A stretch of DNA of 64,000 nucleotides from Heterodontus francisci (Eukaryota): assembly GCF_036365525.1 (NCBI RefSeq), contig NC_090374.1:139042685-139106684 (forward strand). The letters are read 5' to 3'. Under the pieces are notes generated by a model, which was not told the DNA's origin, made no database searches, and saw only the letters and a list, made by a program, of their open reading frames with translations. Made by a program: the position numbers and the translations under genes. Positions 12,345-13,210 of the stretch are shown here, piece by piece; position 1 is the first letter of the stretch, and each line of letters opens with the position of its first letter.

Positions 12345-12549
12345 ATATATCATTTCGGTGGCTTGACAACTCTTCCAGATCTTTGGATATAACCTTCTGG
12401 GGATATGGATTTCACCCTTGGCTGTTTTTGGTTTGCAGACATGTTATCAATGTGTTGGTTGTTGTCCTGTTGTTCCGTCACTGCATATTGGTCAAGCACC
12501 ATCTTCATTCTCCCTTGTTTTTGGCCAGTGTCTCCTGCATCTCGGAGAA
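12345..12549 (-). pseudogene. Gypsy integrase C-terminal tail remnant
   Basis: FSEMQETLAK/KQGRMKMVLDQYA followed by RSGRVVKPPK*Y, resembling the (T)RSGRxxKPPxR terminus typical of Gypsy Pol. Confidence 0.65.
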
Positions 12550-13210
12550 TTTGCATCTAAGCTGTTGCTATTTTTTGTGAAGTTTCTGTTGCTCTGTCTT
12601 CAGCCTGCTAAGATACTGCTTTTCTCAGGATGAACACTTTTGAGGCCTTGTCATTTTTGGAAAGTACTGGCACCTCATCTCGAAGAGCCAACAGACAATG
12701 CTTCAACTCATTCCTCCTTTGCCTCTCCATGACATTGTGTGTGTATCACCTCTCCTCATCCTCTGCGTCTGAAGGCCTGGGGCTCAAGATCGAGGGGGAG
12801 GAGTACTTGGCCTCTTGGAGGTACCTGTCTGTTCTGGCTCATTCTGGTGCTGGCAGTTCTCTCGAGAGCAGAGGTGAAAGCACGGCAAAGTTATGCTGTT
12901 GCTGGATTTCCAGACTCCACCGTTTGATGCTGGCCAGAGCCTGTGAGTGGGTTTCAGTCCTTGGAGATTTCCCCTTGGCAATGCTCCCCACTGCCAGCCT
13001 TTGTTTCTCAATGGTCACAACGTCAATCTCTTCTTCTGAGTCGCTGGAGCGTGAAGAAACATTGCCTGTTGGTGAAGAACTTTCACCATCTGAATTTGAA
13101 TGTTTATTCTCTTGGTGTGGTGTCTCTGAGAAGGGGCTGATACTCTCCAAACCAGAACCGCTGAGATCCTGGAAGAACTGTGACTCAATCTCAGACATCA
13201 AAGGGCTGGA
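12550..13210 (-). pseudogene. myc: Captured, intronless Myc-family coding segment (MBIII to bHLH-leucine zipper), disabled in this copy
   Basis: One frame reads FFQDLSGSGLESISP...SSDSEEEIDVVTIEK...LEIQQQHNFA...PAPE*ART...[55 protein letters not shown]. After a frameshift at ~12616 it continues [21 protein letters not shown]. These are Myc boxes and the bHLH-LZ in canonical order. Confidence 0.96.

Follow-up and report, generated by a model that had tools for sequence, protein, structure and literature searches.

A Ty3/Gypsy retrotransposon family in the shark Heterodontus francisci with an in-frame segment of the host gene mych

A 64,000-nucleotide stretch of the Heterodontus francisci genome (contig NC_090374.1, positions 139,042,685 to 139,106,684; hereafter the window) contains a decayed LTR retrotransposon that carries, in frame between its protease and integrase sequences, a segment of the host Myc-family gene mych. 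We observed the donor gene, the loss of its intron, microhomology at both junctions, a pol-bearing parent, the copy number, the subfamilies, trimming from two sides, and an inherited loss of DNA-reading residues. Our preferred reading, held with modest confidence, is that the window copy belongs to a non-autonomous Ty3/Gypsy family with in-frame mych cargo, and that the Myc piece was carried along in frame as a passenger and did not serve as a working Myc protein.

The window copy and its captured mych segment

The element is laid out on the minus strand of the window as follows:

16554..16558, minus strand: 5' copy of a 5-bp target site duplication, matching the 3' copy (11936-11940) at 4 of 5 letters
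16304..16553, minus strand: 5' LTR (TG...TA, about 250 bp), from its pairwise match to the 3' LTR (87% identity; K2P 0.113)
16294..16303, minus strand: primer-binding site remnant, damaged in this copy, longer and clear in siblings
14470..15360, no strand assigned: private 891-bp unrelated repeat inside gag, absent from sibling loci and belonging to a dispersed repeat family (70-77% identity)
13750..14469, minus strand: 3' part of gag with zinc knuckle, broken, ends approximate (84-87% DNA identity to siblings; zf-CCHC in sibling L064)
13370..13710, minus strand: aspartic protease region, ends approximate, from the translation (motif position 13630; stop at 13504)
13220..13350, minus strand: remnant of the start of reverse transcriptase (RT), 5' end approximate, running on into RVT_1 in pol-bearing siblings
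13220..13226, minus strand: 5' capture junction, 7-bp microhomology between element and host mych, in frame
12548..13226, minus strand: captured spliced mych, host residues 121-358, with MBIIIa-like motif, EEIDVV, QQHN box, NLS-like motif and bHLH-zipper
13030..13042, minus strand: junction of host exons 2 and 3, with the 1.7-kb intron absent
12548..12553, minus strand: 3' capture junction, 6-bp microhomology, in frame
12350..12553, minus strand: C-terminal tail of integrase, shortened by a shared internal deletion of 222 bp, with an RSGRVVKPP motif at its end (12382)
12189..12202, minus strand: polypurine tract
11941..12188, minus strand: 3' LTR (ends in CA; start short by about 10 bp), from the pairwise LTR match

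A Pfam search of the window translation gave no hit for the protease, which is named from its place and motif. The repeat at 14470-15360 has an internal inverted repeat, full-length relatives 70-77% identical to it, and about 4,600 first-look candidates. A third LTR-like copy of the family, apparently solo and 5'-truncated, lies on the opposite strand at window positions 32033-32215 (80-81% identity).

An initial annotation of the window had read 12345..13210 as an N-terminally truncated Myc joined to the integrase tail. The motifs it named (FFQDLS at 13177, EEIDVV at 13033, QQHNFA at 12901 and HNVMERQRR at 12739) and the stops at 12841, 12748 and 12570 all lie at the places it gave on the minus strand. 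Membership of the Myc family and a frame shared with gag-protease and the integrase tail likewise held up, but the donor is mych and not c-Myc, and the cargo starts at 13226, 16 bases beyond the annotated limit.

With X placed at the stops, the Pfam Myc_N match is confined to profile positions 224-322, HLH is recognised at E 1e-11, and the best PDB match of the cargo is the c-Myc bHLH (E 2e-12), with Max at 1e-4. By these matches, the Myc-family likeness of 13226-12548 is far beyond chance. The top protein matches are shark proteins named 'myelocytomatosis oncogene homolog' (mych), the first of which (P0002) is labelled Heterodontus francisci. Protein identity is 83% and 78% to the two host mych exons vs 45% and 41% to the two other host Myc loci found, among which no L-Myc locus was found. 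Judged against those two loci, the donor is host mych, the nearest Myc member, not c-Myc or N-Myc. Published accounts describe mych as a fish gene that zebrafish neural crest survival requires (PMC2323570; PMC11457510).

The host mych gene (G000:C16, L043) has two coding exons separated by a 1.7-kb intron and matches P0002 at 100%. The element carries the last 190 bp of the first mych exon fused directly to the second, and the exon junction is spanned without insertion in all 56 of the 56 copies tested; as the intron is missing from the cargo, capture was from spliced mych mRNA. The cargo corresponds to host residues 121-358 of 366. Host Mych has its MBI-like motif at residue 42 and its MBII-like motif at 101, both upstream of the capture start at 121, so the activation domain (MBI, MBII) that would mark a v-myc-type cargo is missing, as first annotated.

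The cargo takes the place of about 2.17 kb of RT-RNase H-integrase sequence. Pol-bearing siblings and the host gene together fix the two junctions, both in frame and both at sequence common to host and parent element (7 bp at the 5' end, 6 bp at the 3' end). The FSEMQETL tail, ascribed to integrase in the initial annotation, indeed has the same letters in pol-bearing siblings from window position 12553 on. Junctions of 7 and 6 bp are a template-switch signature, and two switches during reverse transcription are the likely course of capture here. The features of an LTR-mediated retrocopy were all found: an intron-less insert, part of an ORF replaced with microsimilarity at both ends, and later non-autonomous mobilisation, seen in dispersed cargo copies with their own LTR pairs and flanks.

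Host and family cargo differ by 17 synonymous and 12 non-synonymous changes, a count that pools both branches for want of outgroup DNA; many of the amino-acid differences seem to have arisen on the host side. The element sides with other sharks against host mych at several positions, and the copies would therefore preserve an older mych state and could date host changes.

A pol-bearing parent and the extent of the family

Sibling loci, collected by DNA search with gag-protease, are of two kinds. Pol-bearing siblings match the window to 13220, continue into about 2.17 kb of other sequence, and rejoin it at 12553. This stretch encodes RVT_1 and rve, with a zinc knuckle (zf-CCHC) upstream, and in L064 RVT_1 precedes rve; RNase H was seen in the Pfam lists of the parent RT's relatives. 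The best PDB matches of the parent RT are an 'enzymatic polyprotein', a label we take to mean caulimoviral-type, and Ty3 RT, both ahead of foamy virus RT. Given the pol domains of the siblings and an RT nearest, among solved structures, to the Ty3 type, the parent is a Ty3/Gypsy element. The hallmarks of Ty3/Gypsy (Metaviridae) elements are present in paired LTRs, a primer-binding site, a polypurine tract, a short target site duplication, the pol order and the RT likeness, and no env was detected in the element.

The best relatives of the parent RT are 1,350-aa K02A2.6-like echinoderm polyproteins (60-68% identity). For the parent RT (L067:3810-4547), echinoderm relatives stand at 60-68% vs 50-54% for fish among the matches listed; horizontal transfer of the parent element is possible. 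The closest relatives being echinoderm gives a lead, and only a lead, to membership of the Mag clade, in which SURL has been placed within Mag C (PMC3601003).

Pol is present in 21 of 38 new loci picked by gag-protease, and pol and cargo occur together in none of them. Loci L079, L081, L082 and L086 have a shortened non-mych interior between protease and tail and are other pol deletion derivatives. The pol-bearing loci L256, L258, L264, L266, L267, L273, L276 and L278 hold most of the derived gag-protease markers in common with late mych types, and tail classes mix across subfamilies; the shared markers and mixed tails point to putative repeated recombination between helper and passenger.

A bHLH 19-mer has 934 exact matches in the genome (control, 0) and is present in 15/54, 41/113 and 10/22 sampled copies, giving an estimate of about 2,000-3,400 copies. 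The 216 matches of an exon-junction 19-mer give about 540-870, an estimate that leaves out the commonest type, which has no exon junction. With 593 exact matches for a pol 19-mer, chosen among the best conserved, vs 934 for the bHLH 19-mer, copies with mych seem at least as numerous as those with pol. Short non-autonomous elements are often more numerous than their parents.

Multiple cargo copies also occur in contigs of two other organisms: two contigs of organism B bridge the 5' junction, and two of organism C (DNA) span the exon junction. Sequencing runs guessed as RNA contain family contigs, from which expression does not follow. Among named proteins, extra mych-like copies were found only in H. 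francisci, with one mych in each of five other sharks. NCBI annotates at least seven element copies (P0122-P0127, P0136) as 'N-myc' or 'myc proto-oncogene protein-like', and several of the annotated copies have an N-terminus of protease or RT-start sequence.

Compared with the host gene, the window cargo has deletions of 9 bp (near 12795), 5 bp (near 12618, a frameshift) and 21 bp (near 12585, a heptad). The latter two account for the frameshift at about 12616 and the missing zipper heptad of the initial annotation, to which our analysis adds the 9-bp deletion. Whether such damage is private to this copy, a question raised with that annotation, has a divided answer. The three deletions are private (present in 1/113 copies and 0/60 further copies). 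The stop at 12841 occurs in 40/113 copies (23/57 in a second set) and that at 12748 in 28/109 (16/54); their frequency is near that of other CpG sites (mean decay share 0.29 over 20 sites), so both reflect recurrent decay, though neither is fixed. The stop at 12570 is found in 2/95 and 6/48 copies. Disablements shared by all copies, which the annotation had named as a mark of passive cargo, are thus not what the copies contain. Cargo free of stops and frameshifts is found in 2/113 and 1/44 copies, and the window copy is dead. LTR-pair K2P is 0.135 for 12 mych copies, 0.126 for 7 pol copies and 0.113 for the window; the family is therefore old and mostly dead, and its spread was contemporaneous with that of the parent.

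Subfamilies, trimming and selection

Since a FastTree tree of the copies (maximum-likelihood-type) is nearly star-shaped, subfamilies were set by linked variants instead (62 linked among 494 tested, where chance would give about 2 false pairs). The glutamate of the basic region is retained in a set of copies, the window copy included, that cluster with pol-bearing copies of their own type and in part have long tails; these copies are therefore the early type, a minority. Loss of the glutamate follows descent (p 1e-15), and it is kept in 32/106 similarity-picked, 6/53 junction-picked and 4/48 bHLH-picked copies. The His-Glu-Arg set, which from alignment to c-Myc we take to be the base-reading residues of the cargo, is kept in the window copy and the early type, not across the family. 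All cargo samples were picked by cargo sequence and under-sample cargo-less derivatives. Decay is similar in early (0.081) and late (0.087) types and does not decide the order of spread.

Shared deletions trimmed the element on both sides of the cargo. The upstream spacer went from 261 to 132 and then to a class in which the end of the protease meets the cargo at about codon 80, and the tail from 472 to 250, 154, 139 and 81. The frame is kept in 7 of 8 shared junction or deletion classes, the two capture junctions included; in the only frame-shifting class (tail 81) the shift comes after the zipper, with a new stop near the old one. As the chance in-frame share of repeats in this sequence is 0.37-0.42 (5-7-mers), 7/8 corresponds to p of about 0.01, calculated by hand at 0.4. 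No shared deletions were seen within cargo codons 80-230, and trimming ends before the helix-loop-helix-zipper.

Of 50 bHLH-picked copies, the cargo begins near codon 80 in 33, at codon 13 in 7 and at the original junction in 6, and the remaining 4 have other cuts. The commonest type (33/50) has thus lost its first 80 cargo codons, EEIDVV included. It keeps the basic-region histidine in 8/30 copies and the NLS-like lysine in 0/30; the first zipper leucine is kept in 30/32, the second in 26/33 and the last in 2/32, and the second leucine is also changed in one subfamily (24/158). The basic-region arginine, present in 33/33 copies of the commonest type, was rejected as a sign of conservation because the search pattern covers that residue, which makes the count circular.

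Among private variants omega is 1.0-1.16, a neutral value. Across 170 copies of the longer types, the inherited cargo variants comprise 12 synonymous and 10 non-synonymous changes where 7.2 synonymous are expected (omega 0.40; p 0.027, with 0.045 and 0.022 for the two other thresholds). Significance was not reached with 113 copies (8:9, p 0.12) or in the bHLH-zipper part alone (4:4, p 0.14). None of the 22 inherited cargo variants is a stop, and few would be expected; at one synonymous variant the letter is that of the host, possibly through re-import. Inherited gag-protease variants number 26:21, with 13.4 synonymous expected (omega 0.32), a value we discarded as an independent sign of translation in the mych lineage because pol-bearing copies share derived markers (e.g., 21/22).

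The majority changes that lead from early to commonest type, 5 synonymous and 10 non-synonymous with 5.2 synonymous expected, indicate neutrality, and 5/10 of the path changes fall at residues invariant in eight orthologs vs a baseline of 53/155 (p 0.23). In both tests about half of the amino-acid changes are at such invariant residues, and Myc-specific positions are therefore not spared. The longer-type and commonest-path tests disagree, partly share variants, and are neither of them strong. Neutral evolution of myc codons between subfamilies, the other mark of passive cargo named with the initial annotation, was accordingly found on the commonest-type path but not among the longer types. A synonymous excess among mid-frequency variants was gone once mutation type was controlled, and a permutation test, which had missing distances and little power, was replaced by cluster tests.

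Accounts of the cargo and comparison with known captures

On our preferred reading, spliced host mych mRNA replaced the RT-RNase H-integrase core in frame, probably through two template switches, and the enzymes of pol-bearing siblings (RT, integrase) would have mobilised the mych copies in trans. Selection would preserve a single open frame reaching from gag almost to the 3' UTR, through a need for translation-coupled packaging or for escape from nonsense-mediated decay, and would favour shorter genomes while Myc-specific residues went unprotected. Early copies of the window type would encode a gag-protease-Mych fusion with basic region and zipper intact and the transactivation domain absent, and the most widely spread lineages had lost basic-region and zipper features. 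We see the Myc piece as a passenger because the frame is kept in 7/8 classes, the glutamate is mostly lost, the 5:10 path is neutral and private variants are neutral. The synonymous excess at omega 0.40, close to that of gag-protease, the undeleted codons 80-230 with their mostly retained first two zipper leucines, and the 934 vs 593 matches may all count against it, and a pure passenger does not predict a copy excess over the pol-bearing type.

The retained helix-loop-helix-zipper could instead have been useful, either as an Id- or Omomyc-type Max sponge or as a polyprotein dimerisation module, shifting germ-cell state or silencing to the element's advantage. We regard this as possible but doubtful. 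It would make sense of trimming that converges from two sides, with the frame kept, on the QQHN box and bHLH-zipper, of omega 0.40 among inherited cargo variants, of the first two zipper leucines being mostly kept, and of the high copy number. It is harder to reconcile with the neutral 5:10 on the commonest-type path, with a last leucine in 2/32 and an NLS-like lysine in 0/30 copies, with the second leucine altered in one subfamily (24/158), and with a non-significant bHLH-zipper (4:4, p 0.14). Equally tentative is a version in which a germline capture by a non-infectious retrotransposon, comparable to MC29, would have been refined stepwise into a basic-dead, Max-sequestering helix-loop-helix-zipper that aided the family to outnumber its autonomous parent.

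A little less probable still, the early cargo could have been harmful, as a DNA-binding Myc without activation domain and a predicted germ-cell dominant negative, with wide spread only after disarming. The glutamate-keepers are indeed the early type and about a tenth of copies, and losses strike both base-reading residues, the NLS-like lysine, EEIDVV and a zipper leucine. However, the excess at invariant residues is not significant (5/10, p 0.23), the like decay of early and late types (0.081, 0.087) gives no order of spread, and neutral drift in a few master lineages would give the same picture.

In Myc proteins, EEIDVV binds WDR5, MBIV binds HCF-1, and the His-Glu-Arg residues of the basic region read E-boxes. 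The initial annotation had proposed a stable, protease-released E-box/Max-binding protein acting as a dominant negative, chromatin tether or self-regulator; that such a protein drove the success of the family is very improbable, since, although early copies including the window keep the basic region, EEIDVV and zipper in frame (private damage aside), about nine-tenths of copies lack the glutamate and about two-thirds EEIDVV, and those lineages spread most. E-box binding, WDR5 tethering and self-regulation lack support family-wide, given the glutamate counts (6/53, 4/48) and, in the commonest type, the deleted EEIDVV and the losses of histidine, lysine and last leucine counted above, and would fit early copies only.

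Avian MC29 gag-myc is replication-defective and helper-dependent, with myc in frame behind gag at the expense of pol, and v-myc retains the activation domain and drives cell growth. The shark family resembles MC29 in origin but not in protein action, as its cargo is without MBI/MBII, comes from mych, and has mostly lost its DNA-reading residues. With a bHLH-zipper and no activation domain, the cargo would resemble Omomyc, a bHLH-zipper dominant negative engineered for homodimerisation, from which the commonest shark type would differ in its lost basic-region and zipper residues (PMC7780693, which besides Omomyc deals with WDR5, the Myc boxes and FBW7 at MBI).

LTR-mediated retrocopies arise when spliced host mRNA replaces part of an internal ORF, with each of the two switches marked by about 6 bp of microsimilarity (Tan et al. 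2016, PMC5131818, which cites maize Bs1 and HERV-K/FAM8A1 as cases). The shark family is like them in keeping both LTRs, in undergoing further non-autonomous rounds and in its frame, which is often kept in retrocopies, and unlike the cases in the accessible text of that report, of single or few copies, in that its copies number thousands, fall into several subfamilies and were trimmed stepwise, and in its Myc-family cargo in a shark germline. Among crocodilian ERVs, CrocERV29 carries KIT-ligand (9 copies) and CrocERV31 nectin3 (6 copies), and these too are germline vertebrate LTR elements, present in several copies, with captured host mRNA of a growth-related gene (PMC4299795). As that source describes them, however, they are retroviruses with whole ORFs under purifying selection, whereas the shark family is Ty3/Gypsy without detected env, has a truncated cargo fused into gag-pol, and is decayed in nearly all copies. 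Literature searches, whose scope left out subscription journals, supplements and repeat databases, found no report of this family and, judged by titles and the openings of abstracts, none of myc capture in sharks; the family may already be in a repeat library for H. francisci with its cargo unremarked. While the mechanism has been described before, the cargo, host group and scale are new as far as these searches reach.

The NCBI labels on element copies would, taken at face value, falsely imply a Myc expansion in a shark. In this family the capture of a Myc-family gene by a Ty3/Gypsy element, not a retrovirus, is preserved in the germline in thousands of copies, with donor, parent and intermediates in one genome, and this makes a long-standing question testable from sequence, namely whether captured host cargo is kept for its benefit to the element or merely for an open frame.
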